Part shown: in pieces, positions 38,059-51,343 of the stretch
How positions within the stretch are numbered: the stretch's first letter is position 1
Layout of the letters: each line of letters starts with the position of its first letter
NCBI GenBank assembly: GCA_965223845.1
Contig: CBDCXR010000004.1
Span: forward strand, 1,760,001-1,824,000
DNA from: Planctomycetota bacterium
GTDB taxonomy: Bacteria > Planctomycetota > UBA8108 > SXIK01
Length of the DNA stretch: 64,000 nt
Direction of reading: 5' to 3'
The notes under the pieces: model-generated
Told to the model about the DNA's origin: nothing
Seen by the model: the letters and a program-made list of their open reading frames with translations, nothing else
The model's database searches: none
Translations under genes and position numbers: made by a program

Positions 38059-39873
38059 TCACCGGCTCGCCAGGCGGCCTAGCGCGCGCCGGAGGGCCGC
38101 TGCCGCGTAGACCGGAGGATAGAGGCGCTCGAAGTACCAGAGGTCGGCGAAGTAGAAGCCGATCGGGGTCGGATCCTCGAGTCCGCCCGCCTCGACCGTG
38201 CCCACGAGCCACTCGAGCCCCCGCTGGACGGCATCCTCGCCCGAGAGATCGCCGTCCGTTTCCGCCCCGAGCAACGCGTAGAGCGCGAGCGCCGACTCCT
38301 CGACGCTCGACGGCGCCCCGTGGTCGCCACCCCAGCCGCCGTCCTCGTTCTGCGCGTCGACGAGCCAACGCTGCGCGTTTCGCCGCACGGACTCCCCGAT
38401 CGGAACCTCCGCGTCCTCGAGGGCGATGAGGACCCGACTCGTCCCGTAGACGGGGCTCTCGTTCTGGGGGACGTGTTCGTTCCCGAACCAGAGCGGAAGC
38501 CACGCGCCGTCGGCCCGTTGCGTGCGCTCGAGGAATGCTCCCATCGCGCGAGTCGCCCGGTCGAGCCTCGGGGCGAGATCCGGAAACGTCCCGCGCCACG
38601 CGGAGAACGCTCGCAGGGCGTGAGCGGTCAGGTCCGCGCCGCTCCGATCGAACGGCAGCCGTCCCCAACCGCGGCAAAACGTCGGAATTCCACCGTCGCG
38701 ATTCTGCAGGTCGAGAAGCCAAGAGAGTCCCGCGGCCGAGGCGCGCCGCGACTCGGCATCGCCTTCGCCGAGGCACTTGAGAGCGAGGAGCGCACCCGCT
38801 GTATCGTCCGCGTCGGGAACGCCGCCGGGAAGATCGGTCCAAGCCCATCCCCCCGGCGCCGCCCCGGTGTACGGATGAACGGTTCGGTACTGCTGACTGA
38901 GAAGCCAACGGCGGATCGGTTCTCGGTCAGCGGGAGAGAGCGCGGACGCCCCCGCTTCAGCGAGCGCTCCAACCGCGAGCGTCGTCACCCAGGTCGCGAG
39001 ATCGGTGTCGATCGGCCAGCTTCCGTCCTTCCGTACTGAGTGCTCGAGGAACCGCGTCGCTTCGCGCACGACGGGGTGGCCCGCCGAACCGCTCGCGGCA
39101 AGACTCATCGTAACGAATGCCGTCAACGGCACCGCTTCGAGAAAACCGCCGCTCGCCGGCTGGATCTCGCGCAGAACGTTCAGCGTACGCGCGCGTGCCG
39201 CTGCGCGCGCCACTCGGGTCAAGGGATTCCGCGTGGGGCGATGGTGGTGGTGTACTTGCCCGACGGCGATCAAGGCCGGGAGGGCGTAGCTGACGACGGG
39301 AAGCCCGAGGAAACGAAACCAGCGACGGGGGAGCGCGGCGAGCTCGAACGGGAGAGACTTCACTGACCTCCAAGCATCGCGTCCCTCGCCTAGGCATCCG
39401 GCGAGGGCGCAGTGGGTGAGGATAGGCACGCTGAACGTTCGATCCTCACCGTAGACGGCGAGGATCGCCGCGGCGAGAGCGTCGGGCGAAGTCGAGCCGG
39501 CGCGCGCCGCGATCCAGTCCTCGGCACCCCGAATGGCGGACTCGACCTTCCCCTCTGACCGTGCGACCGCTCGCAGCGTCGCCCAACAGAGCGTCGTCGT
39601 GCTGATGTTGCTCCGGCTCGCCGGCGTGTCGCCCCAGCCGCCGTCCGTGTGAACGTTTTCCGCTAGCCAATGTGCTCCCCGCGCGACGAGCTCGCGGTGC
39701 TCCGGTCCACCGTGCTTCTCCACGAGTGCAAGCGCGAGAGTAGCGGTCGCGGTCGAGAGCGCACTCGTCGAGAGCTCGCCGCGCCAGTGGCCATCGGAAG
39801 TGCGTTCACCGAGCAGTCGCTGCTCGACGAGATCCGCGGCGCGCTTGAGTCTGTTGTCGAAGTCGTCCGTCAT
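38059..39873 (-). CDS. Squalene-hopene-cyclase-like class II terpene cyclase (beta-gamma didomain)
   Basis: GHWRGEL, DGGWG and GGWAW...VPDADDTA (DxDD). QW motifs QNRDGG, QRADGAW and QNEDGGWG; C-terminal IGFYF..LWY.E.LYP. Confidence 0.88.
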   Translation of the reverse strand: MTDDFDNRLKRAADLVEQRLLGERTSDGHWRGELSTSALSTATATLALALVEKHGGPEHRELVARGAHWLAENVHTDGGWGDTPASRSNISTTTLCWATLRAVARSEGKVESAIRGAEDWIAARAGSTSPDALAAAILAVYGEDRTFSVPILTHCALAGCLGEGRDAWRSVKSLPFELAALPRRWFRFLGLPVVSYALPALIAVGQVHHHHRPTRNPLTRVARAAARARTLNVLREIQPASGGFLEAVPLTAFVTMSLAASGSAGHPVVREATRFLEHSVRKDGSWPIDTDLATWVTTLAVGALAEAGASALSPADREPIRRWLLSQQYRTVHPYTGAAPGGWAWTDLPGGVPDADDTAGALLALKCLGEGDAESRRASAAGLSWLLDLQNRDGGIPTFCRGWGRLPFDRSGADLTAHALRAFSAWRGTFPDLAPRLDRATRAMGAFLERTQRADGAWLPLWFGNEHVPQNESPVYGTSRVLIALEDAEVPIGESVRRNAQRWLVDAQNEDGGWGGDHGAPSSVEESALALYALLGAETDGDLSGEDAVQRGLEWLVGTVEAGGLEDPTPIGFYFADLWYFERLYPPVYAAAALRRALGRLASR

Positions 39874-40015: not shown

Positions 40016-40765
40016 TCAACCGCCCGCCCCCCGGATCTTCGTTCCCATCCATCCCGAACGCGTCCGCGTCGCGATCACGAGTCCCGAGCCAACTCCGCTG
40101 AGGCGCGCGACGAGTTCGCCTCCTTCGGACCAGATCGAGCTCCCGCCCGCGGTGTCGAGCGTCGTCGACGGAGCGCCGTGATTCGCGAGAACTACGGCCA
40201 TCGAGTGCTCCCGAGCGTATCCGGAGAGCTTCTCCGAGACCGACTCGAACTCCGCCGGCGAGAAGAGCACGCCCGCGAGGTACAGCGTCGCGCCGCGCGC
40301 CGCGGCACTCCGGGGATGGGACGCGTGATTCGTGTCGGCGCAGATCGCGACCGCCGCGACGTCGTGCCCGATTCGAGTGAGCGGGTCACGCTCAGCCGGA
40401 TCGAACACGTCCAGCTCGTCGCCCCCGAGGTGGCGCTTCGTGTAGATCGCCTCCCGGCCATCCGCCCCGACGATGAACGCGCCGATGTGAAGTCCCGACG
40501 CGAGCCGGATCGGCGCGCCGACGACGAGCGTCACGCCGTGCTCGGCGGCCGCGTCACGGAGCGGGGCCAGCCGGTCGTCGCGCTCGGAGAACGCGAGGGC
40601 GTCGGCGAGATCCAATTCGTATCCCGTGAGCGACAATTCGGGAAAGACGAGAAGCTGGACGTCGTGTGCCGCCGCGACCGCGACCAGTCGGATGTGACGA
40701 TCGAGGTTATCGCGAACATCTCCCCGGAGTGACTCGATCTGGGCGGCACCGACGGTCACGCTCAT
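40016..40765 (-). CDS. Carbon-nitrogen hydrolase (nitrilase/amidase superfamily)
   Basis: E-K-C triad in FPELSLTGY, YTKRHL and ICAD. Confidence 0.9.
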   Translation of the reverse strand: MSVTVGAAQIESLRGDVRDNLDRHIRLVAVAAAHDVQLLVFPELSLTGYELDLADALAFSERDDRLAPLRDAAAEHGVTLVVGAPIRLASGLHIGAFIVGADGREAIYTKRHLGGDELDVFDPAERDPLTRIGHDVAAVAICADTNHASHPRSAAARGATLYLAGVLFSPAEFESVSEKLSGYAREHSMAVVLANHGAPSTTLDTAGGSSIWSEGGELVARLSGVGSGLVIATRTRSGWMGTKIRGAGG

Positions 40766-40802
40766 CTCGCGCGTCCCTTTGTCCTTTAGCATCCGGCGCC
40801 TG

Positions 40803-41687
40803 TCAGAGACTCAAGTGACCGAGCGCGAGGAGCCCGTAGTACGTGTACTCGCAGTCGAGCGTGTCTTCGGCCCAGTGGCCGTAGAAGCTCCCGCGACTCG
40901 TCCAAAGGGTATCGATGAACTCGAGGCAATCGTCGCGAATCGAGTCGAGAGGACACTCGAGCGCAGCGAGCGCGTGGAGCGCCGTCGCCGTCGACAAGAG
41001 GTCGGGCACCGGCGTGCGCGGCCCGGCGCAGAATCCGCCGGCGCGACGGCAGCTACGGACGAGCCACTCGCCCGCCGAGGCGGGACAATCGATCCCGAGA
41101 GTCCGCGCGACGGTCACCGCGGCCGCCGTCGCGGGCGTCGCGCCCTCGGCGACGCGGGCGTCGTTCGCATAGCCTCCGTCGCTCTGCCGGCGTGCCGACA
41201 GAAACTCAGCGATCCGGGACGACGGGATTTCGCTCCCGAGGTCCTGGAGCGCACCGACGGCGAGAAAGACTCCGTAGACGTTCCCCATGTCCGCTCCGCG
41301 TTCGGTCGCGTAACCGCCGTCTGGGGTTCGGTGTCGGTCGATCTCGGCCTCGAAAGCGGCGCGGGCCGCGGTCGAAACCTCGAGCCCGCGGCTCGCCGTC
41401 GCTCGCACCGCAGAGGACAGATGGACGAGATCGAGGCTCGCGATCGTCTCCGGATCGGTGAAGGAGCACAGATACTCTCGCGTATCCGGAGGAAACTCCG
41501 TTCTCAGCGCGAGAAGGCATTCCGTGCCGAACAGCGTGTAATAGAGATCGGCCGCGCCGTCGCGATCACGAAACCCACCGTTCGGTGCGAGCTGGTCGAG
41601 AACGAACGCAGCGACGAGCTCCGTCGACTCACGCAGAAGCTGCGGCGCCAGTCTCGCGACCTGCAGCATTTCGAGTCTCATGCTCAC
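40803..41687 (-). CDS. Prenyltransferase/squalene-oxidase repeat (alpha/alpha barrel) protein
   Basis: Repeats NGGF..RDG.ADLYYT, DGGY, QSDGGY, AGGF...PDLLST and GSFYG...DCEYTYY. No DxDD. Confidence 0.82.
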   Translation of the reverse strand: MSMRLEMLQVARLAPQLLRESTELVAAFVLDQLAPNGGFRDRDGAADLYYTLFGTECLLALRTEFPPDTREYLCSFTDPETIASLDLVHLSSAVRATASRGLEVSTAARAAFEAEIDRHRTPDGGYATERGADMGNVYGVFLAVGALQDLGSEIPSSRIAEFLSARRQSDGGYANDARVAEGATPATAAAVTVARTLGIDCPASAGEWLVRSCRRAGGFCAGPRTPVPDLLSTATALHALAALECPLDSIRDDCLEFIDTLWTSRGSFYGHWAEDTLDCEYTYYGLLALGHLSL

Positions 41688-43353
41688 GGCACCAGCCCTT
41701 GATCTCGGCGTCGCCGAACATCTTGCCGATGACGCGCCGGAGGAGACCCTTCACGCTCGCGTTGCCGAGCGGCCAGAGAGACCGTATCGCCTCTTCCTTG
41801 TAGGCGTCGAAGAGCTCGCGGCAGCGAGCGACCGCGCCGAGCTCTTCCATGCGGCGCCGCACGGTGTCGGCGGGAACGGCCGCCTCGCGTCGCCAGAGTG
41901 CGTCGAAGAGCTCCCGATCGACTCCCTTCGCCTTTTCCCGCGCCACCGCGAGCGGAAGCGTCGGACGCAGAGCTTCGAGGTCGCCGGCCTCCGCCGTTTC
42001 GGCGAGATCGTCGAGGTCGTCGCGAATCTGGTACGCGATGCCGAGGGAGCGACTGAAATCCGTCACCACCTTCGCCGTCGCGTCGTCGCCGCCGCCGTAG
42101 AGAAGTCCGATCTGGAGCGCGACCTCGAATGCGGGCGCCGTCTTCTCGCGAAAGATGTTCACCACATCGATCGGCGCGAGTGGAGCGGGCCGGCGGGCCC
42201 AGCAGAGTTCTGCACCCTGGCCGCGGCAGAGCGTCCGGTGTCCTTCGGCCGCGACGCGAAGCATCGCGGCGCGCGTTTCAGGCGCCGCCTCGCACTCCGC
42301 GAGGATTCGGTACCCTTCGCCGATCAGAAGGTCGCCGACGTTGAGCGCGACCGGGACGCCGAGCTCGGCGTGGAGAGTCTCTTCGCCGTAGCGCACCGCA
42401 TCGTCGTCCTCGATGTCGTCGTGGACGAGCGATGCCTTGTGGAAACACTCGACGGCGATCGCGACGCGACGAAGATCGTCCGCGAGCTCCGCGTCGGGTT
42501 CCGCAGCGAGCGCCTGCTGCATCGCCACCGTCAGAATCGGACGCCAGCGCTTTCCGCTCCGTGCGAGCCAGGCGCGCGCGATCTCCTCCGTCTCCCCGGT
42601 CGGCTTGCCGAGAAGACGATCGAGCGACTCGCGCGTAAACCACTCGCGCACCTCGTCGCGGAGCGCGGCGAGGTCGAGGCGGCGCGTGCGATCGTCAGCC
42701 GTGAGCTGGATGACGTCCCAAATCCACTCCAGGTCGACGTTCGTATCCACGCAGTCGTCCTGCAGAAGCGGAATCGCCACGCCCGGGATCGCGGCCGCCT
42801 CCATGTACGGAAACGCGCGCTCGAGCACGCTGAGACAGCTCACCCCGACGATCGCATCGATCTTGCCGGTCTCGATGATCGACATCACGATGGGCGATCC
42901 CTCGGCGACCAGAACGGCGTAGCCGAGCCGCTCTGCCTCGGACTGGAGATCCTGAATCGAGCACATGCCGCACTTCTTGCAGAGGAGCCCGAACTCGTCG
43001 AAGGGCGCCGGACAGTGGGACTCGAGTCGGAGGCACTTCGGGAGGAGGAGAAGACGGCGCTCGAACGGAATCGTCGCGAGAGTCTCTCGCCAGAGCTCGT
43101 TGTTGAGAAGCACGCCGGTGAAGTCGACGAAGTTCTGGTCGATGCCAGTCTTCTTCAGAAGCTCGAGCGTCCTCTCACGCAGGGCGTCGATCGGAACCGG
43201 CGGAACGAGATCGTTCTCGGCGACGTAGCCGCGGACGAGTTCGCGCAGTCGCTCGCGCTCGGCGGCGGTCGCGGGGATGTTGCTCTGCGTGGGCCGACTC
43301 GGAATCTCGGCCGGCAGAGTCGGCAGCAGCTTGAGCGGAGGGGGGCTCGACAC
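41629..43353 (-). CDS. Polyprenyl-diphosphate synthase fused to an N-terminal Cys-rich DUF116-like domain
   Basis: N-terminal LLLPKCLR..CPA...CKKCG.C...GVSC...C. C-terminal GKRWRP, FARM SLVHDDIED, GD, GQ, KTA and SARM YQIRDDLDD. Confidence 0.88.
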   Translation of the reverse strand: MSSPPPLKLLPTLPAEIPSRPTQSNIPATAAERERLRELVRGYVAENDLVPPVPIDALRERTLELLKKTGIDQNFVDFTGVLLNNELWRETLATIPFERRLLLLPKCLRLESHCPAPFDEFGLLCKKCGMCSIQDLQSEAERLGYAVLVAEGSPIVMSIIETGKIDAIVGVSCLSVLERAFPYMEAAAIPGVAIPLLQDDCVDTNVDLEWIWDVIQLTADDRTRRLDLAALRDEVREWFTRESLDRLLGKPTGETEEIARAWLARSGKRWRPILTVAMQQALAAEPDAELADDLRRVAIAVECFHKASLVHDDIEDDDAVRYGEETLHAELGVPVALNVGDLLIGEGYRILAECEAAPETRAAMLRVAAEGHRTLCRGQGAELCWARRPAPLAPIDVVNIFREKTAPAFEVALQIGLLYGGGDDATAKVVTDFSRSLGIAYQIRDDLDDLAETAEAGDLEALRPTLPLAVAREKAKGVDRELFDALWRREAAVPADTVRRRMEELGAVARCRELFDAYKEEAIRSLWPLGNASVKGLLRRVIGKMFGDAEIKGWCREHETRNAAGRETGAAASA

Positions 43354-43383
43354 GGTGTTCAGTCTCCCGGTGCTTCTCTCTCG

Positions 43384-44271
43384 TCAAGAGGACTCGCCCG
43401 AAGGCGCGTCCGCGCTCCCAGTGTTCGGCCCTCGAGCTCCCGCCTCAGCGGCTCGGGCGCGAATCTCGTCCATCGACGGAAGCGACATCAGCACTTCCTC
43501 GGGGATGTCGAGATCGGACTGCAGCTTCTTCAGGCAGCGCATTCGCTCCTTGAGAGCCTTGCTCTCATCGCGCTCTTTCGAGAATCGCGACTCCGCCCGT
43601 CGATGGCGCTCCCGGAGAGCGCTGTAGATATCGCCGCCGAGTAGGGCGGAGATGTCGACCTTCATTTTCTCGCGCTCGACGTCCTCGTCACTCACGTTCG
43701 CGCCGTTGATGGGGCCGGCGCCGTATTTCGGGAAGAGGATGGCGACTTCCGGGCAAACCCGCGAGCAGGCCGGGCAGTTCGTCTTACACTTGTCCGGGTT
43801 CTTCACTTCGATCTGCGAATCCGCGTCGACCCCGTAGACGTCGAACAGGCAGAAGCTGAGGCACTGCATGCAGTTCGTGCAGCGCTCGAAGTCGATAACG
43901 GGAAACCACGGCTTCCACGCGCCCGGCTCGGGCGCACCGGCGTCTCGCGCCACGGATTCGACGAGCTCCGCCACGGCCGTCGGCTCGACCGAAGCGATGT
44001 CGTGCACTCCGTTGTGTTCGGCGGAGGATTCCGGCTTCTCGTCACGACCGTCGCGAAGAACGATCGTATCGGCCGGGAGAGCCTCGTTCCCTCCGCCCGC
44101 GAACGACGAGGCATCGCTGCCGGCGTACCGCACGGCGAAGCCCTTCTCGAGCACGGCCTTCAAGACGTCGCGCCGGCGCTCGACGGCCGCGTCCGAGTCG
44201 GCGACGGGGCCGCGCAAGAGCACGGGAACTCTCGCCCGCGAGGGGGCTGGGGTCGCTGCTTGGGGCGGCAC
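43384..44271 (-). CDS. 2x[4Fe-4S] ferredoxin-domain protein
   Basis: CTNCMQCLSFC and CKTNCPACSRVCP motifs. GTG start follows GGAGG. Confidence 0.85.
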   Translation of the reverse strand: MPPQAATPAPSRARVPVLLRGPVADSDAAVERRRDVLKAVLEKGFAVRYAGSDASSFAGGGNEALPADTIVLRDGRDEKPESSAEHNGVHDIASVEPTAVAELVESVARDAGAPEPGAWKPWFPVIDFERCTNCMQCLSFCLFDVYGVDADSQIEVKNPDKCKTNCPACSRVCPEVAILFPKYGAGPINGANVSDEDVEREKMKVDISALLGGDIYSALRERHRRAESRFSKERDESKALKERMRCLKKLQSDLDIPEEVLMSLPSMDEIRARAAEAGARGPNTGSADAPSGESS

Positions 44272-44349
44272 TGGGCTTCCTCCGACTCGGTCGGCTCCGC
44301 GGTTAGTGTTCCCGACCGAGCCGCGTCGCTCGGTCGCGCCGTCGTCGAT

Positions 44350-44721
44350 TCAGGTCTCCGCACTCGCGGGTCGCGCGGAAGGCTCGCGAAGAAGCGTCTC
44401 GACGATCGTCTTCGGATCCTCTTCGCGCATGTTGCAGATCTCGACCGGAGGTGCAGACTCCCCCTCAGCCAGCGGCGCTCCCGCCGCCTTGAAGAGCCAC
44501 TTCACCGACCGGGGAAAACAGGCCGCGATGCGAACCTCGGCGTTCGGTTCCGCCAATCGCGCGAGAGACGGGTCGCGCCGAGCCGAGAGTTCACACAGGT
44601 CGGCGACCGCCTCGAACGGTTCGCCCGAGCGGGCGAGCTCCGCGAGAACCGCATCCTTTACGCCAGGCGAGATGATCTTCGCGTAGGCGCAATGGCAGTA
44701 GAGGATCCGAGTCGGTGCCAT
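44350..44721 (-). CDS. Small Cys protein resembling the N-terminal Fe-S domain of HdrA
   Basis: YCHC...DLC...AACFPR...NMRE matches the HdrA-N pattern VCHC...MC...AACSPR...NIRE. Confidence 0.65.
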   Translation of the reverse strand: MAPTRILYCHCAYAKIISPGVKDAVLAELARSGEPFEAVADLCELSARRDPSLARLAEPNAEVRIAACFPRSVKWLFKAAGAPLAEGESAPPVEICNMREEDPKTIVETLLREPSARPASAET

Positions 44722-44779
44722 GAGAAGTACCACGAGATAAACCCCGGTCGAGGAGACGACTCTCGGGCCGAATCCCGAC

Positions 44780-44808
44780 ATGCTATCAGGATCGGCGGAG
44801 GATGTCAG
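44780..44808 (-). promoter_or_regulatory. Putative internal sigma70 promoter CTGACA-N17-TAGCAT
   Basis: 5/6 match at -35 (44808-44803), 17-nt spacer and 4/6 match at -10 (44785-44780), in the 210-nt gap before the Fe-S/terpene genes. Confidence 0.35.
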
Positions 44809-44931
44809 CTCCCGTGCCAGGGAAGCCAAGACGGGATAGGGAGTTACGTCGATTGCGCGGAGCTCGGAGCGCGCTCGGCGGCGGCCGGGCGCACGAGTCC
44901 CGAGATTCTCCTCGGGGCTTCGCTCCTCCCG

Positions 44932-46029
44932 TCATTCCTCCATGCGGTGCGTCGGCTGGGGCTCGCCCGGACGGAAGCTCTCGAGATCGTCGACCCGGAC
45001 GTCGGGGACCGAGATCTCCTCGAGGACCGACGCGACGGCTTCGCGGAGGACCGCGGGATCGGCCTCGGCGCGCAGATTGATGATCAGCTCGCCCGAACGA
45101 ATCGGGGTAGAGAGGCGCATTCCCGTCTCGGGGACGAATTCATTGCCGACGAGCTGACTCACCGCGAGCTCGCCGAGCACGGTACCGCTCGAGAGCGTGA
45201 GTTTCAGGTGCGCGATGTCGCGGACGTCACCCCGCAGGCGCTCCTGCAGCGACGCCATGATCCCGTCGACGAACGCGTTGCCGTCGAACTCTTCGGCGTG
45301 GCTCACGGTCGCGGTCGCGTTCAGCCACCCGAGGAGAGCCTCGCCCTCGCCGTAGATCGCGTAGTCGAGGTCCATCGCTTTCCCGCCCGGGAGATCCTCC
45401 GCGAGGATCCGATCGAGCCACGCGTCGAGGCCCTCGCCGCTCCGCGCCGAGACCTGAATCACGTCCGCACGCGCAAAGCGTTCCGCGAGAGCGCTCTCGA
45501 GCGCACGTCTCTCGTCCGGCGAGAGCAGATCGATCTTGTTGATCGCGATGAGGTGCGCCTCCTCGAGCTGCTTCTCGTAGATGTAGACGACTTTGCGCGA
45601 GAATTGCCGTCCGGATTCGAGCCCGAGTACCCGCATCGCTCGGCGCGGATCGACGAGCACGGTGAGCGGGGCGATCCGATAGCGCTCACCGTACATTCGC
45701 CGTAGCGGGTAACTGACCGAGGCGACGAGATCGGTGCAACTACCGACCGGCTCAGCGAGGAATACGTCGGGGCGATTCGCCGCGCTGAGATTGTCCGCCG
45801 CCGCGAGGAGGGAGCTGAACCGGCAGCAGAAACAACCGCCCGCGATCTCTTCAACGGCGTAGCCGCGCGCGCGGAGGAACCGCGTATCGACGAGGCCCTC
45901 TCCCTGATCGTTCGTGATCAATCCCACGGAGAGTCCCCGGGCGACGATCCGCTTCGCGAGCTCGGCGAGGGCCGTCGATTTACCCGCGCCGAGGAAGCCG
46001 CCGACCATGATGTAGTGTGCTCGATCCAA
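44932..46029 (-). CDS. CobW/COG0523-family G3E metallochaperone GTPase
   Basis: GGFLGAGKST, ITND.G, GGCFCC, EPVG and INKID. Confidence 0.9.
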   Translation of the reverse strand: MDRAHYIMVGGFLGAGKSTALAELAKRIVARGLSVGLITNDQGEGLVDTRFLRARGYAVEEIAGGCFCCRFSSLLAAADNLSAANRPDVFLAEPVGSCTDLVASVSYPLRRMYGERYRIAPLTVLVDPRRAMRVLGLESGRQFSRKVVYIYEKQLEEAHLIAINKIDLLSPDERRALESALAERFARADVIQVSARSGEGLDAWLDRILAEDLPGGKAMDLDYAIYGEGEALLGWLNATATVSHAEEFDGNAFVDGIMASLQERLRGDVRDIAHLKLTLSSGTVLGELAVSQLVGNEFVPETGMRLSTPIRSGELIINLRAEADPAVLREAVASVLEEISVPDVRVDDLESFRPGEPQPTHRMEE

Positions 46030-46059
46030 GGGATCCTCGAGTTTTCTCGTATCGGTGGG

Positions 46060-46566
46060 TCAGCAGTCGGCGCCACCCGCGCCGAGGTCCACTCCGCTCC
46101 GCCAGGGTTGCTCGAGCATCTTGTCGATCGTCGCGTGGAGCTGCGCGACGTATCCCTCGACGTCGACGGCCTTCGGATCGGGCGTCCCGCGGAGCGCGAA
46201 CAGCCAACCGTCGCCGTACGGATCCTTGCAGATCAGCTCGGGGTCCTCGCGGACGGCGGGATTCACGCCAGCGAATTCACCGCCCGCCACAGAATAGATA
46301 TCCGAGACCGCCTTAAACCCTTCGATCCAGCCGAGGGCCTGCGCGACCTCGACTTTTTGCCCCTCGTCGACTTCAAACTCGAACTCCACGATTTCGCCGA
46401 GCATTCGAGTTGCGAACCCGGTGAGTCCGACTCGCCACGTGGATGCGTCCTTCTCGTCGGGGCACGTGAGCCAGTAGTGCGAGAGCGTGTAGACGTACTC
46501 GCGGGGCAGTCGAGTCGAGAAGTGGTTTCGCTTGAAGCGAATCGGGCCGTCGTCCGGGGCGGTCAT
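46060..46566 (-). CDS. Glycine-cleavage H-protein-like (lipoyl-domain) carrier protein
   Basis: SHYW...RVGLT.FA..LG.I, IEGFKAVSD (lipoyl-site Lys), VN and DPYGDGWLF. No gcvT or gcvP in the window. Confidence 0.85.
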   Translation of the reverse strand: MTAPDDGPIRFKRNHFSTRLPREYVYTLSHYWLTCPDEKDASTWRVGLTGFATRMLGEIVEFEFEVDEGQKVEVAQALGWIEGFKAVSDIYSVAGGEFAGVNPAVREDPELICKDPYGDGWLFALRGTPDPKAVDVEGYVAQLHATIDKMLEQPWRSGVDLGAGGADC

Positions 46567-46580
46567 CGGTGTGACTTTTC

Positions 46581-47786
46581 TCAGCGCTCGCCGGTTGGAA
46601 GGCAGTGATCGGCGCGCGGGGCCGATCGGGGTCGAGCGCGCAGCTCGGTCACGGCCGCGATCACCGAGTCGGCGGCTCGCTCGATCTCGTCGGGCGTCGT
46701 CGTTCGTCCGAGACCGAATCGCAGCGACCCCTCCGCGGCCGCGCTCGAGCCGTAGAGCATCTGGAGGACGTAGGAGCCGGTTTGCTTCGCCGACGAACAC
46801 GCGGCGCCGGACGAGACCGCGACGCTGGGGATGGCGCGGAGGAGGTCCTCGCTGTGAACGCCGAATCCGACGCTCAGATTGTTCGGGAGACGATCCGTCA
46901 TCGTTCCGTGGAGGGTGACACCCTCGAGCCCCGTGCGCAGACGGTGCCAGAGGCGGTCCCGCAGTTTGGAGATGCGTTCGCTGTCGCGGTCTCGCTCCTC
47001 GGCGACGATCGCGGCCGCGCAGCCGAAGCCCACGATCCCCGGAACGTTGAGTGTTCCCGACCGCAGACCGCGCTCGTGTCCACCCCCGTCGATTTGCGCG
47101 CGCAGTCGCACCCGCGGCCGACGCCGGCGCACATAGAGGGCGCCGACGCCTTTCGGCCCGTACATCTTATGCGCGGAAAGCGAGAGGAGATCGACGCCGA
47201 GCTCGTCGACCCCGAGCGGAAGATGCGCTCCGGCCTGGGCGGCGTCCGAATGAAGGAGCGTGCCGTGCCGACGACAAATCGCCGAGATCTCTCGGAGCGG
47301 ATGCACCGTGCCGATCTCGTTGTTCGCGTACATGAGGGAAACGAGCGCAGTCTCGTCGCGAATCGCATTCTCGAGTCGATCGAGGTCGAGCGTTCCGTCC
47401 GCGTCGACTCCGAGATAGGTCACCTCGAACCCGTCTTCCTCGAGGCGTGCGCAGGTATCGAGAACCGCTTTGTGCTCGGTCCCACAGGTGACCAGGTGTC
47501 GTCCGCGCGCACCGGTCGCGGTCATGACGCCTTTGAGCGCGAGGTTGTTCGATTCCGTCGCGCCCGAGGTGAATACGATCTCGCGGGGATCCGCGGCGAG
47601 CAGATCGGCGACTTCCGCGCGTGCGCGCTCGACGTGGCGAGCCGCGGCCCGTCCGGCCGCGTGCTGTGCGCTCGCGGCGTTTCCGAACGTCTCCGCGAAC
47701 ATCGGGAGCATCGCTTCGACGACGCGGGGATCGCACGGCGTCGTCGCGTGGTGATCGAGATAAATCGGTGAAAATTCAGCGGCCAA
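46581..47786 (-). CDS. iscS: Cysteine desulfurase, IscS/NifS group I
   Basis: IYLDHHATTP, FTSGATESNN, EHKAV, ANNEIG, DAAQ, SAHKMYGPKG, RSGTLN and SSGAACSS. TTG start is estimated. Confidence 0.88.
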   Translation of the reverse strand: MAAEFSPIYLDHHATTPCDPRVVEAMLPMFAETFGNAASAQHAAGRAAARHVERARAEVADLLAADPREIVFTSGATESNNLALKGVMTATGARGRHLVTCGTEHKAVLDTCARLEEDGFEVTYLGVDADGTLDLDRLENAIRDETALVSLMYANNEIGTVHPLREISAICRRHGTLLHSDAAQAGAHLPLGVDELGVDLLSLSAHKMYGPKGVGALYVRRRRPRVRLRAQIDGGGHERGLRSGTLNVPGIVGFGCAAAIVAEERDRDSERISKLRDRLWHRLRTGLEGVTLHGTMTDRLPNNLSVGFGVHSEDLLRAIPSVAVSSGAACSSAKQTGSYVLQMLYGSSAAAEGSLRFGLGRTTTPDEIERAADSVIAAVTELRARPRSAPRADHCLPTGER

Positions 47787-48208: not shown

Positions 48209-49513
48209 ATGACGACGCCCCTCTCCGAAGAAGATACCGAAGTCGGTAGTTACTTCATCTCGAACTACCCGCCGTTCAGCTTTTGGAAGCCGGAGCACGT
48301 AGATTCCGCCCGGGCGGCCATCGATCGATCGCCCGCGCCGGACGTACCGCTCGGACTCTATCTCCACATCCCGTTTTGCCGAAAACGGTGCAAGTTCTGC
48401 TACTTTCGGGTCTACACCGAAAAGAACAGCCGTGAAGTGGAGCGCTATCTAGCCGCACTCGTTCGCGAGATCGCTCTATACAGCGAGCGGCCCGTCCTCG
48501 AGGGGCGACCGTTTCGATTCGCGTATTTCGGCGGTGGAACGCCGTCGTTCCTCAGCGAGAAGCAGCTCCTCTCCCTGGTCGATCGACTGCGCGCGTCGAT
48601 CGATTGGGACGACGCCGAGGAGGTCACGTTCGAGTGCGAGCCGGGAACGCTCACCGAACGAAAGCTGCGGGCGATCCGCGAGCTGGGAGTGACGCGCCTC
48701 AGTCTCGGCATCGAGAATTTCGACGACGCCATTCTCGAAGAGAACGGACGGGCACACCGCAGTCCGGAAGTGTTTCGCGCGTACGAGTGGGCTCGGGCGA
48801 TCGGATTCCCACAGATCAACGTCGATCTCATCGCCGGGATGGTCGGTGAAACGACAGAGAACTGGCACGAGTGTGTGCGGAAGACGATCGAGCTCGCGCC
48901 CGATTCGGTGACGATCTACCAGCTCGAGCTTCCGTTCAACGCGGTGTACTCGAGCGAGCTCCGAACGGGCGGCGAAGTCTCCGTCGCGACGTGGGGGCGG
49001 AAGCGGGAGTGGGTGGCCTACGCGTTCGACGCGCTGCGCGAAGCCGGCTATTCCGTCTCGAGCGCTTACACCATGGTGAAGGACCCCGACGCCAAGTTCG
49101 TCTATCGCGATGCGCTCTGGCGCGGCGCCGACATGCTCGGGACGGGGGTCGCTTCGTTTTCGCACGTCGCCGGCGTGCATTTTCAGAATCTTGACACCGA
49201 CACGCAGTACCTGGAGTCGCTCGAGAGCGGCGAGCTTCCGATCGGACGCGCGCTTCCCGTCACGGATCGCCAACGCATGATTCGCGAATTGATCCTCCAG
49301 CTCAAGCTCGGCTCGGTGGACCCGGCGTACTTTGAGCGCAAATTCGGGTTAAGGATCACGCGAGAGTTCGGTTCGGTCTGGGACGACCTTCGTGACCACG
49401 GGTATCTCGAGTCCGGCGACCCGCCCACTTTGACGCGAGACGGGCTTTTGCGCGTCGACGCGTTCCTCCCGCGATTCTTCGAGCCGGAGCACCAAGGCGC
49501 TCGGTATACGTAA
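48209..49513 (+). CDS. HemN-like radical SAM enzyme (class C methyltransferase-like)
   Basis: LYLHIPFCRKRCKFCYF (CxxxCxxC), FGGGTPS, ECEP, RLSLG and NVDLIAG. N-terminus has SNYPP rather than the HemN PRYTSYP. Confidence 0.88.
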   Translation: MTTPLSEEDTEVGSYFISNYPPFSFWKPEHVDSARAAIDRSPAPDVPLGLYLHIPFCRKRCKFCYFRVYTEKNSREVERYLAALVREIALYSERPVLEGRPFRFAYFGGGTPSFLSEKQLLSLVDRLRASIDWDDAEEVTFECEPGTLTERKLRAIRELGVTRLSLGIENFDDAILEENGRAHRSPEVFRAYEWARAIGFPQINVDLIAGMVGETTENWHECVRKTIELAPDSVTIYQLELPFNAVYSSELRTGGEVSVATWGRKREWVAYAFDALREAGYSVSSAYTMVKDPDAKFVYRDALWRGADMLGTGVASFSHVAGVHFQNLDTDTQYLESLESGELPIGRALPVTDRQRMIRELILQLKLGSVDPAYFERKFGLRITREFGSVWDDLRDHGYLESGDPPTLTRDGLLRVDAFLPRFFEPEHQGARYT

Positions 49514-49526
49514 GTCGAATTCGGCC

Positions 49527-50084
49527 ATGACACCGACCGTTCAGCTGACGACTCTCCTCGATTCTTTCCCGGACGGTCCTTTCCGTTCGAGCGATCTAGA
49601 GCTCATCTCACCAGCCGAGGTGCCGGAGCCCTACGCGCGGCTCCTCGTCCACAACCACCACATGACGGTGACGCTCGAAGATTTCCACCGAGCGACGCTT
49701 TCTCTCCAGGTGCTTGGCGAGAAGCGGACGGACGACAGCTACACGCGGCGGCTCACGCTGAGCGTGGGCTCTCCTGAAGAAGACCGACGGGTCGTCCTCG
49801 CAGGAATCATGCGCATCGCGCTCGATCGCTGCAGCGACCGAGTACGGCACGAGATCCTCTCCGGGGCGACACCCCTCGGGCGAATCCTAATCTCGAATCG
49901 CGTTCTTCGCCGAGTCGAGTCCAACGCGTATCTTCGCGTGAAGCTGAGCGCGCCCATCCGGACGATGTTCGCGCTCGCCGATGACACCAAGGGGTTCGCC
50001 TACGGACGCATCGCGCGCATCTTCTGCGACGGTGAGCAGGCGATCGAGCTGCTCGAGATCGTTCCGCCGGAGCCGGAAGAATGA
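49527..50084 (+). CDS. Chorismate-lyase (UbiC/UTRA-fold)-like protein
   Basis: LLVH..HMT.TLE, YTRR..L, EILSGATPLGRIL, YGR and final LLEI resemble the chorismate pyruvate-lyase pattern. Confidence 0.6.
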   Translation: MTPTVQLTTLLDSFPDGPFRSSDLELISPAEVPEPYARLLVHNHHMTVTLEDFHRATLSLQVLGEKRTDDSYTRRLTLSVGSPEEDRRVVLAGIMRIALDRCSDRVRHEILSGATPLGRILISNRVLRRVESNAYLRVKLSAPIRTMFALADDTKGFAYGRIARIFCDGEQAIELLEIVPPEPEE

Positions 50085-51343
50085 ACGATCGAGTCCCGGT
50101 AGTGGTGATCGGCGGTGGGCCGGCGGGCTCGACGGTCGCGGCGCTTCTCGCGGACGCGGGAGTCGGCGTGCGGCTCTTAGAGCGTGCGACGATGCCGCGC
50201 TTTCACATCGGAGAGTCTCTCATCACGGAAACCTACTGGACGTTCGAGCGCCTCGGGGTTCTCGATCGCTTGAAGGCCTCGGACTTCCCGAAGAAGTACA
50301 GCGTTCAGTTCATCTCCGAGAGCGGGCGTGCCTCTCGTCCGTTTTATTTCTACGAGCGGGATCCGCACGAGAGCTCGATGACTTGGCAGGTCGACCGCGC
50401 GGAGTTCGACCAGATGCTCCTTCAGAACGCGGCCGCGAAGGGGGCAGATGTCCGTACCGGCTACGGAGTTCGCCGCGTCCGCTTCGACGGCGAGCGCGCC
50501 GTGGGGGTCGAAGGGACGGACTCCGCGGGCGAACCATTCGCACTCGACGCGGATGTCGTGGTCGACGCGACGGGCCTTCACGCGCTCCTCGCTCGCCAAG
50601 AAAACCTCCTCCAGCGGGACCCGCATCTCGTCAAGGCCGCCGTATTCACGCACTTCGAAGGGGCGAGGCGAGACGAGGGAATCGACGAGGGCGCGACGCT
50701 CATCATCCACACGAAGGGAAACCGCGGCTGGTTTTGGTACATCCCGCTCAGTCGGGATCGCGTGAGCGTCGGAGTGGTCGGATCATCGCGGGAACTCATG
50801 CAGGGAGGCGTGAAACCGGACGAGATCCTCGCGCGCGAGATCGAAGCCTGCGCCGCGGTCAAGGATCGCGTTGCCGGCGCGCGACGCGTCAGCGACGTCC
50901 ATGTCACGAGCGACTATACCTACCGGGCGACGCGCTGTGCGGGCGACGGTTACGTGCTCGTCGGCGACGCGTTCGGGTTTCTCGATCCGATCTACTCCTC
51001 CGGCGTCCTGCTCGCGCTGAAATCGGGAGAGCTCGCGGCGGATACGATCGCGGCAGCCCTCGCCGACGGCGACATGTCGGCCGAACGTCTCAGCGCGATG
51101 GGCGCTCCGATCGCGACGGGAATGGAAGCGTTTCGGAAGATGGTCTACGCGTTCTACACACCGGGGTTCAGCTTCGCGAATTTCGTCGCGCAGCATCCGG
51201 AACATCGCGATGCCCTCGTTCGCGTCCTCATCGGAGACGTGTTCAAGGGTGACACCGATGAGATCTTTCAGGCGATGGGCGCGATGTGCGAGCTTCCCGA
51301 GGAAGTTCCTCTCGGCGGGGAAGGACCCGAGCACCGGGCGTGA
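50081..51343 (+). CDS. FAD-dependent oxidoreductase, flavin-dependent halogenase-like
   Basis: GGGPAG, PRFHIGESL, FPKK (Lys at the halogenase catalytic position), GWFWYIP (WxWxIP) and GDA.GFLDPIYSSG. Confidence 0.8.
   Translation: MNDRVPVVVIGGGPAGSTVAALLADAGVGVRLLERATMPRFHIGESLITETYWTFERLGVLDRLKASDFPKKYSVQFISESGRASRPFYFYERDPHESSMTWQVDRAEFDQMLLQNAAAKGADVRTGYGVRRVRFDGERAVGVEGTDSAGEPFALDADVVVDATGLHALLARQENLLQRDPHLVKAAVFTHFEGARRDEGIDEGATLIIHTKGNRGWFWYIPLSRDRVSVGVVGSSRELMQGGVKPDEILAREIEACAAVKDRVAGARRVSDVHVTSDYTYRATRCAGDGYVLVGDAFGFLDPIYSSGVLLALKSGELAADTIAAALADGDMSAERLSAMGAPIATGMEAFRKMVYAFYTPGFSFANFVAQHPEHRDALVRVLIGDVFKGDTDEIFQAMGAMCELPEEVPLGGEGPEHRA

Follow-up and report, generated by a model that had tools for sequence, protein, structure and literature searches.

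Why a set of iron-sulfur (Fe-S) and metal-handling genes should share a row with enzymes that build and cyclize polyprenoid chains is the question raised by a locus of a Planctomycetota bacterium (GenBank assembly GCA_965223845.1, contig CBDCXR010000004.1). The stretch of DNA that we analysed, referred to here as the window, comprises 64,000 nucleotides (positions 1,760,001 to 1,824,000 of the contig), and the protein in question is one in which DUF116, a cysteine-rich domain, is fused to a polyprenyl diphosphate synthase. A first reading of these letters (the original prediction) had proposed that an IscS-type cysteine desulfurase, a CobW-type GTPase, a 123-amino-acid (aa) protein resembling the N-terminal domain of HdrA and a ferredoxin form a dedicated module that feeds electrons to DUF116, which would carry out reductive chemistry on the isoprenoid. 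The answer that we favor, and to which we give about an even chance, is that this region constitutes the Fe-S half of a conserved, multi-phylum cluster for a cyclic polyprenoid, in which the module would supply low-potential electrons and maturation functions to the Fe-S proteins of the pathway.

All of the genes named in the original prediction are present on the minus strand according to the open reading frame list and to Pfam and NCBIfam matches. However, a GcvH-like gene had been missed and the row continues downstream to a squalene-hopene cyclase (SHC)-like gene. The genes are tightly packed, with the IscS-like gene first in transcription and the cyclase gene last:

46581-47786, minus strand: IscS/NifS-like cysteine desulfurase (Aminotran_5, E 4.1e-76; NCBIfam IscS 480 bits, cut-off 548); the frame is open up to 48128 and homologues align from about 47786
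46060-46566, minus strand: GcvH-like protein, between the desulfurase and the GTPase (Pfam GCV_H, E 1.5e-21, 77 bits)
44932-46029, minus strand: COG0523/CobW-like G3E GTPase, a putative metallochaperone (cobW, E 1e-23)
44350-44721, minus strand: 123-aa protein with four Cys, no Pfam or NCBIfam family
43384-44271, minus strand: 295-aa 2x[4Fe-4S] ferredoxin, Fer4 dicluster core at residues 122-178
41629-43353, minus strand: 574-aa DUF116-polyprenyl synthase fusion (Pfam PF01976, E 2.3e-37, and PF00348, E 3.3e-42)
about 42712-43161, minus strand: DUF116 part of the fusion, residues 65-214
about 41881-42588, minus strand: trans-polyprenyl diphosphate synthase part of the fusion, residues 256-491
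40803-41687, minus strand: prenyltransferase-beta-like (PTbeta) alpha-alpha toroid protein (Pfam Prenyltrans, E 1.2e-13)
40016-40792, minus strand: carbon-nitrogen (CN) hydrolase (Pfam CN_hydrolase, E 1.2e-21)
38059-39873, minus strand: SHC-like class II terpene cyclase, 604 aa (SQHop_cyclase_C and _N)

Conservation of the gene row

DUF116 was present in 13 of 41 relatives searched, and in all ten of those loci that were fetched the order IscS-GcvH-CobW-123aa-Fdx-DUF116PS-PTbeta-SHC (Fdx, ferredoxin; DUF116PS, the fusion) is kept wherever the contig reached, as read by tblastn with the window proteins in loci of which some are cut by contig ends. The PTbeta-like gene comes after the fusion in these relatives, and in one of them (G002) the IscS gene is shifted to the far end of the cluster, still inside it. 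A more distant family (f5) keeps the order 123aa-Fdx-DUF116PS-PTbeta-SHC, and two other Planctomycetota loci (L034 and L035) show the gene order as well. When 185,579 species genomes were scanned for the pattern of a DUF116 alignment, at least 588 stretches matched, at least 564 of them encoding a relative, and our counts for other phyla rest on the best 80 loci of that scan. These are mostly from Verrucomicrobiota, including Chthoniobacter flavus Ellin428, and include also Sumerlaeota, Acidobacteriota, Methylomirabilota, Haliangiales and Tepidisphaeraceae. The usual order in these phyla is GcvH-CobW-123aa-Fdx-rSAM2-DUF116PS-PTbeta, where rSAM2 is a second radical S-adenosylmethionine (SAM) gene. 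Among the 24 loci that have full 10-kb flanks, rSAM2 is encoded in 15, the 123-aa protein, the ferredoxin and the PTbeta-like protein in 14 each, CobW in 12, the GcvH-like protein in 11, IscS in 8 and the SHC-like cyclase in 5. Since the gene order recurs in 10/10 relatives' loci and in other phyla, the arrangement is conserved far beyond chance; synteny and the co-occurrence counts given below rule out chance adjacency of the cluster genes and bear out the proposal that they form one conserved unit with the fusion.

Co-occurrence was counted in one sample of 251 Planctomycetota genomes, searched with five queries whose lists were intersected, and the figures are descriptive counts without statistics because related genomes are not independent. 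The fusion was scored by a proxy, DUF116 within an open frame of at least 480 aa; the fusion itself was verified by Pfam for six of them and, in the examined loci of relatives and of other Planctomycetota, by tblastn over the full length. DUF116 is found in 105/251 genomes and is of fused size in 65. Orthologues of the SHC-like cyclase are found in 64 genomes, and 62 genomes have both the cyclase and fused-size DUF116, with 2 having the cyclase without the fusion and 3 the fusion without the cyclase. The 123-aa protein occurs in 38 genomes, each of which also has DUF116 (38/38, fused size in 37), the two genes lying on one contig at most 12 kb apart in 29/38 and at most 3.1 kb apart in 27. Orthologues of rSAM2, defined by a threshold of E<=8e-87 from which paralogues are well separated (E>=1e-60), occur in 46 genomes, all with the fusion (46/46), and accompany the 123-aa protein in 29/38; the nine genomes with the 123-aa protein and no rSAM2 orthologue include the single-contig genomes G048 and G209. 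In several genomes many of the rSAM2 matches show a single in-frame stop; the query has the longer C-terminus, so that the alignment very probably continues beyond the stop codon that naturally ends the gene. The gene content, synteny and co-occurrence described here, together with the natural fusions and invariant residues described below, are established by direct observation.

The 123-aa protein, the ferredoxin and HdrA

The motifs YCHCAY, DLCE, AACFPR and NMRE are read in the 123-aa protein, and C9, C11, C43, C68, P70, R71, N97, M98 and R99 are invariant in 30 aligned homologues; on this Cys/PR/RE pattern the original prediction was built. We take the motif set CxC...C...AACxPR...NxRE to be a signature of the HdrA N-domain. 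The AF2 model of the protein (pLDDT 87.8) is four-stranded alpha/beta with a flavodoxin-like fold. One search returned 1697 homologues of similar length and another 687 cluster representatives, and many homologues are longer, with the 123-aa domain at the N-terminus. A 4Fe-4S dicluster domain stands behind the 123-aa domain in 11/15 representatives examined and in most of 100 longer forms. A flavin adenine dinucleotide (FAD) or pyridine-nucleotide domain is listed in 0/100 of these longer forms and the 123-aa protein itself has no further domain, so the claim that it has no flavin domain stands. The 123-aa protein and the adjacent ferredoxin can be regarded as one functional unit since they are naturally fused in many organisms. 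Natural fusions reach further members of the cluster: P0274 (500 aa) joins a CobW GTPase to the 123-aa domain, and P0311 (772 aa) joins the 123-aa domain, the ferredoxin and a radical SAM domain that matches the rSAM2 encoded beside the cyclase in loci L025 and L026. In P0125 (282 aa) the 123-aa domain is joined with a Fer4 motif and with a PAS domain. The ferredoxin itself scores above the Fer4_10 and Fer4_2 cut-offs, the motifs CTNCMQCLSFC and CKTNCPACSRVCP are read in it, and all eight of its Cys are invariant in 24 fusion proteins.

As PMC9012536 describes it, HdrA has an Fe-S domain at the N-terminus, a thioredoxin-reductase/FAD domain and a pair of ferredoxin domains, of which the C-terminal one receives the incoming electrons; the Fe-S clusters of these parts conduct electrons, and the cluster of the N-domain is completed by one Cys of a partner subunit. 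A profile of 24 natural N-domain plus ferredoxin fusions matches three HdrA chains (E 1.1e-3 to 4.6e-3), each match consisting of two collinear parts, the N-domain part aligning to HdrA 46-133 and the ferredoxin part to HdrA 562-652. Aligned motifs are DLC with MC, AACyPR with AACSPR and NMRE with NIRE(Q/H); the CHC part lies outside the alignment. Additionally, the best NCBIfam matches of the ferredoxin include the HdrA C-terminal ferredoxin region 557-638. Because the fusion profile matches HdrA collinearly at both ends, the pair looks like HdrA without its flavin part. The likeness to HdrA of the HdrABC-MvhAGD and Fdh-Hdr complexes (PDB 5ODC, 7BKB-7BKE, 8RVU-8RVY) thus comprises collinearity with both ends and the common motifs C...AACxPR...N[IM]RE. 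Unlike HdrA, the module has neither the thioredoxin-reductase/FAD domain nor the inserted ferredoxin domain and has no HdrB or HdrC, and its four invariant Cys all lie within the 123-aa domain itself, where HdrA takes one from its partner (PMC9012536). Since the FAD domain is a defining feature, the 123-aa protein is no member of HdrA proper, and the absence of such a domain from the 100 longer forms makes electron bifurcation impossible for this module.

Other comparisons give less for the resemblance that had been proposed. The HdrA N-domain part of the profile match scores 9.2 bits (independent E 5.9), NCBIfam HdrA models match only 1/30 members of the 123-aa family (E 0.15), and a search of PDB with the 123-aa family profile gave nine hits at E<=10, with no HdrA among them and designed repeat proteins only; phmmer of the 123-aa protein against PDB gave chance hits only. 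Structure comparison, suggested with the original prediction for the 123-aa protein and made by Foldseek/VIA with the models of that protein and of DUF116, found nothing above generic Rossmann/flavodoxin folds, and HdrA, the MvhD-position chains (5odc_D, 8rvu_F), 2-hydroxyacyl-CoA dehydratase and a double-cubane protein fall within that background. No HdrA gene was found in the organism's own genome, where the only match was the ferredoxin of the cluster, or in five complete Planctomycetota genomes. The evidence for the likeness is thus weak but concordant, with no significant family match, and homology of the 123-aa protein to the HdrA N-domain is likely but not proven. Kinship of the 123-aa family with DUF116 was considered and rejected (hhalign probability 0.04%), and a complex prediction that paired the 123-aa protein and the DUF116 domain gave a score of 0.00, which speaks neither for nor against binding.

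Fusion-bearing genomes without a 123-aa match carry, at the loci examined, a second arrangement that we call type B. Here an SHC-like gene immediately precedes the DUF116 fusion, which shows about 40% identity, and genes for GcvH-like, CobW, rSAM2 and PT-beta-like proteins are found nearby, the GcvH-like protein and the ferredoxin being the most persistent pair. The type-B ferredoxin is long (331-362 aa) and aligns to the fusion profile including its N-domain (probability 99.95%, E 1.2e-38). In three loci all four N-domain Cys are replaced (IAQ, HLN/HLY, LAW/LSW-YPR):

L026:5040-6083: Cys-less long ferredoxin of a type-B cluster
L027:6653-7738: Cys-less long ferredoxin of a type-B cluster
L028:2561-3553: Cys-less long ferredoxin of a type-B cluster

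The N-domain cluster is thus dispensable in type-B lineages, as the homologous N-domain has there lost all four Cys, and retention of the domain where no cluster can be held suggests a docking role. In single type-B cases a HemN-like gene, a gene for a 185-aa protein, an Rrf2 regulator or a GNAT gene is nearby. For example, a GNAT acetyltransferase gene lies between rSAM2 and the SHC-like gene (L026:7381-7836), and a gene for an Rrf2-family regulator lies at the end of the same type-B cluster (L026:12667-13080).

DUF116 and the possible destination of the electrons

DUF116 in the fusion scores 128.3 bits with PF01976 (cut-off 25) and the synthase part 144.9 bits with PF00348 (cut-off 27). The synthase has the motifs DDIED and DDLDD and reaches no NCBIfam equivalog cut-off, the best match being an encapsulin cargo polyprenyl transferase (125.6 vs 450 bits). 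The pattern C..C..CxxCxxC..C..C that had been noted for DUF116 is confirmed and corresponds to seven residues (C107, C114, C125, C128, C131, C173 and C201), invariant in 30/30 fused-type sequences and in 12/12 sequences of type-A, type-B and stand-alone form. The fused-type domain is 52-79% identical to that of the window across phyla (30 sequences). In its AF2 model (pLDDT 79.5) an N-terminal helical part precedes a Rossmann/flavodoxin-like core, and the Cys are placed in the long loop that follows strand 1 and behind strands 3 and 4, the usual cofactor edge. A phmmer search of PDB with the DUF116 region gave chance hits only, and an ESM Atlas search with the DUF116 core, own families excluded, gave no usable match. 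The seven Cys fit Fe-S binding, possibly as a four-plus-three arrangement, and are also compatible with Zn.

An electron-transfer function for DUF116 is already in print together with the fusion. Makarova et al. (2015; PMC5898192) predicted that DUF116 (COG1852, arCOG02078) is a flavodoxin-like metal-binding electron-transfer domain, and the same source notes the fusion to a polyprenyl synthetase in Pirellula staleyi Psta_0175. The Cys-rich CxxCxxC and the flavodoxin-like fold predicted there are seen here. For the archaeal forms that source gives two transmembrane helices at the N-terminus and "at least six" Cys. The bacterial sequences analysed here, fused or stand-alone, share seven invariant Cys, and the fused form is modelled with an N-terminal extension that is helical and soluble. 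The domain also occurs alone. In 4/5 Planctomycetota loci examined, a stand-alone seven-Cys DUF116 gene (147-165 aa) directly follows def-fmt, a translation-related context, with rsmB after it in two of the four:

L029:8417-11807: def-fmt-DUF116 row
L030:8321-10373: def-fmt-DUF116 row
L031:8312-11905: def-fmt-DUF116 row
L032:8202-10174: def-fmt-DUF116 row

The fifth locus (L033:9321-12027) has two tandem DUF116 genes, of 229 and 249 aa, beside an Rce1-like CAAX prenyl protease gene. Archaeal DUF116 is reported beside sulfite/nitrite reductase or ATPase genes (PMC5898192), and a figure legend of a preprint on a Bipolaricaulota isolate (10.1101/2025.11.21.689855) names ispH, shc, hpnH and a polyprenyl synthetase gene in the vicinity of a DUF116 gene. 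Because of the stand-alone form in def-fmt operons and the archaeal non-isoprenoid contexts, DUF116 is not tied to isoprenoids and is a general module used in several contexts.

The IscS-like protein contains the motifs SAHK and SGAACSS, and other IscS paralogues in the genome are 49%, 38%, 33% and 35% identical to it. The GcvH-like protein scores 81.6 bits with NCBIfam GcvH, below the cut-off of 117, and its lipoyl-lysine (K in EGFKAVSD) is invariant in 13/13 aligned sequences; with a second GcvH, 35% identical, encoded elsewhere in the genome, its sequence marks it as a GcvH-like paralogue and not the housekeeping GcvH. Since the genome holds these further IscS paralogues and a second GcvH, the copies in the cluster can be seen as dedicated extras. 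The CobW-like protein scores 84.3 bits with cobW (cut-off 20.7), reaches no NCBIfam equivalog cut-off and has the P-loop GGFLGAGKST and a CFCC motif, CxCC being the hallmark of COG0523 GTPases. The SHC-like cyclase scores 122 bits with TIGR01507, far below the squalene-hopene cyclase cut-off of 431, yet keeps the DxDDTA motif (as DADDTA). A tblastn search with this protein found no second SHC-family gene in the genome at E<1e-8, so it may be the only class II triterpene-type cyclase of the organism. The rSAM2 protein weakly resembles SPASM/MoaA/HpnH-type enzymes (at most 51 bits). The organism's own rSAM2 gene (C4:716,697-717,908; its product is 65% identical to the L025 copy) is 1.09 Mb away from the cluster among unrelated FecCD/ABC transport and GGDEF genes. 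In one relative (G005) rSAM2 lies between the PT-beta gene and the cyclase gene, where the window has the CN hydrolase gene, which suggests local replacement or relocation.

From these observations we infer metal content, direction of electron flow and chemistry as follows. Two enzymes would be at the core of the pathway, the polyprenyl diphosphate synthase fused to DUF116 and the SHC-like class II cyclase. [quoted passage not shown] The extra IscS paralogue and the COG0523 GTPase would mature these Fe-S centres, and the lipoyl-type GcvH-like protein could serve as a redox or sulfur carrier on the input side. DUF116 would be a general seven-Cys flavodoxin-like metallodomain, most likely an Fe-S one, which in the fusion may couple prenyl-chain synthesis to a redox step or to redox partners. 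The small electron chain of the original prediction is upheld as far as the 123-aa/ferredoxin unit is concerned, on account of the natural fusions, but its destination is not, as rSAM2 is an equally good candidate acceptor. That the 123-aa protein tracks DUF116 (38/38) more strictly than rSAM2 (29/38) favors DUF116; the P0311 fusion and the adjacency of the ferredoxin and rSAM2 genes favor rSAM2; and both may be served by the wire. Several findings weigh against the electron-supply reading as a whole, namely the low HdrA scores given above, the three type-B loci with a Cys-less N-domain, the 28/65 fusion-bearing genomes without a Cys-bearing 123-aa homologue, the absence of the module from about 10/24 full-flank loci of other phyla and the presence of an SHC-like gene within 10 kb in only 5/24 of these. 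The def-fmt and archaeal settings of DUF116 count in the same direction. Additionally, COG0523 GTPases are typical of Zn delivery, which fits the CobW-like protein as well as Fe-S maturation does.

DUF116 might instead be, as the original prediction has it, a catalytic Fe-S reductase that acts on a prenyl diphosphate and is fed by the 123-aa/ferredoxin chain, for instance in an IspH/IspG-like manner with a three-Cys cluster and an open iron, a possibility that we consider unlikely. IspG and IspH of the methylerythritol phosphate (MEP) pathway are [4Fe-4S] enzymes for reductive steps on isoprenoid diphosphates and draw on ferredoxin or flavodoxin as a small electron donor; they are the best functional analogy for a reductive DUF116. 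The searches showed DUF116 to be related to them neither in sequence nor in fold. The odd number of invariant Cys would fit one four-Cys and one three-Cys cluster, and the occurrence of the 123-aa protein never without DUF116 (38/38) and without an rSAM2 orthologue in 9/38 genomes (including the closed genomes G048 and G209), the 70-80% identity of the DUF116 domain among fusions of different phyla and the almost one-to-one pairing of fusion and SHC-like cyclase are all consistent with catalysis. However, class II cyclases need no reduced substrate, and 28/65 fusion-bearing genomes manage without the Cys-bearing 123-aa protein. The same seven-Cys domain moreover stands alone in def-fmt(-rsmB) operons (4/5 loci), and archaeal DUF116 occurs in non-isoprenoid contexts (PMC5898192). 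Should the wire reduce radical SAM enzymes, that is rSAM2 and here perhaps the HemN-like protein encoded upstream, DUF116 could be a non-catalytic structural, regulatory or docking metallodomain with Zn or a sensing Fe-S cluster. This we regard as doubtful. Radical SAM enzymes need a low-potential one-electron donor, rSAM2 is naturally fused to the module in P0311, is encoded immediately after the ferredoxin and before the DUF116 fusion in most other-phyla loci with the module and is inside the operon of G005, and the Zn delivery typical of COG0523 GTPases would suit such a domain; yet rSAM2 orthologues are missing from 9/38 genomes with the 123-aa protein, the organism's own rSAM2 is remote from the cluster, rSAM2 also accompanies type-B ferredoxins whose N-domain has no Cys, and the invariance of seven Cys in every DUF116 is left unexplained.

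The upstream genes could also form a sulfur/lipoyl relay in which persulfide from IscS and a lipoylated GcvH-like carrier serve the Hdr-like Fe-S proteins in the manner of LbpA of the sHdr system, with sulfur going into the product or a cofactor. We think this very improbable, and we know of no sulfur-containing cyclic polyprenoid. The IscS paralogue and the GcvH-like protein with its invariant lipoyl-lysine (13/13) do travel with the cluster, the GcvH-like protein and the ferredoxin persist together in type-B loci, and a rhodanese gene lies near one type-B locus. As in sHdr-LbpA (PMC6067878, PMC11094781), an Hdr-related Fe-S protein has here a genetic link with a lipoate-binding protein of GcvH-like type and with enzymes that mobilise sulfur, and in sulfur oxidisers lipoate-binding proteins and Hdr-like complexes are said to be "inevitably associated" (PMC6067878). 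Unlike sHdr-LbpA, the window has a terpenoid context and no HdrB/HdrC (CCG) or sHdrB/sHdrC, DsrE, TusA or lipoate ligase was found among the 12 window proteins scanned (Pfam, NCBIfam). The genome has no HdrA homologue, and IscS is the least conserved member of the upstream genes (8/24 full-flank loci). A far-reaching reading, to which we give quite a small chance, is one in which a catalytic DUF116 double centre (a four-Cys transfer cluster and a three-Cys open-iron cluster) would reductively process the nascent allylic polyprenyl diphosphate and, together with rSAM2, make a squalene-independent substrate for the SHC-like cyclase, with electrons from a flavin-less HdrA-like wire that is possibly lipoyl-charged.

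Flanking genes, related systems and significance

Upstream of the row a divergent trio (48209-51343, plus strand) adjoins the cluster, as it does in G003, and parts of it lie beside the type-B clusters L025 and L027:

48209-49513, plus strand: HemN-like radical SAM protein, divergent (Radical_SAM, E 1.6e-24; HemN/HutW/HemW-like, below cut-offs)
49527-50084, plus strand: 185-aa chorismate-lyase-like protein, divergent, no Pfam hit
50081-51343, plus strand: FAD-dependent oxidoreductase, geranylgeranyl-reductase/halogenase-like (Trp_halogenase, E 8.8e-35; FAD_binding_3)

The HemN-like gene adjoins the cluster also in G003 and G258 and is an occasional neighbour. The ESM Atlas neighbours of the 185-aa protein are chorismate-lyase clusters (score 0.95), and a homologue follows the fusion in L025 and L027; its gene was rejected as a core member, being found in 36/251 genomes that include some without DUF116 and usually far from the cluster. 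The FAD-dependent oxidoreductase scores 129.6 bits with NCBIfam GG-red-SF, below the cut-off of 158.8, adjoins the cluster only in G003 among the loci examined, and its link to the cluster is uncertain. The CN hydrolase, within the row itself, was likewise rejected as a core member and is a local insertion without a homologue in 10/10 relatives' loci; neither it nor the HemN-like, 185-aa and FAD enzyme genes are found in any of the 80 loci of other phyla.

The cyclase belongs with the SHC-like cyclases, a large clade whose substrate is left open in the literature (PMC7306690, PMC12414744). Planctomycete SHC-like proteins keep the catalytic residues (Santana-Molina et al. 2020, PMC7306690; PMC12414744), and the genomic context of their genes has been taken to suggest a precursor other than squalene (PMC7306690; PMC12414744). 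Our analysis adds that such a cyclase and the DUF116 fusion co-occur almost one to one, and that Fe-S and radical SAM partners go with them. PMC5898192 has no description of the conserved DUF116 partners seen here, namely the 123-aa protein, the ferredoxin, rSAM2 and the SHC-like cyclase. In the literature covered, from which most subscription journals are absent, we found no paper on a stand-alone HdrA-type module, its fusions, its rSAM2, GcvH-like, IscS and CobW partners or the co-occurrence.

The 123-aa family (1697 members) becomes readable as a stand-alone HdrA-type Fe-S module, and it is likely, though not proven, that the N- and C-terminal parts of HdrA would exist in nature as an independent electron wire. 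For DUF116, seven invariant Cys and three distinct genomic settings narrow the possible nature of the domain. Any cyclic lipid made by the SHC-like cyclases is a potential biomarker, and tying the cyclase to a seven-Cys prenyl synthase and to Fe-S, radical SAM and lipoyl-type partners yields a short, testable gene list for heterologous reconstitution; the pathway is predicted to depend on reducing power and to require handling under anaerobic conditions. If the double-centre proposal for DUF116 were true, Planctomycetota, Verrucomicrobiota and Acidobacteriota would make polycyclic terpenoids by a route that has so far gone unrecognized.

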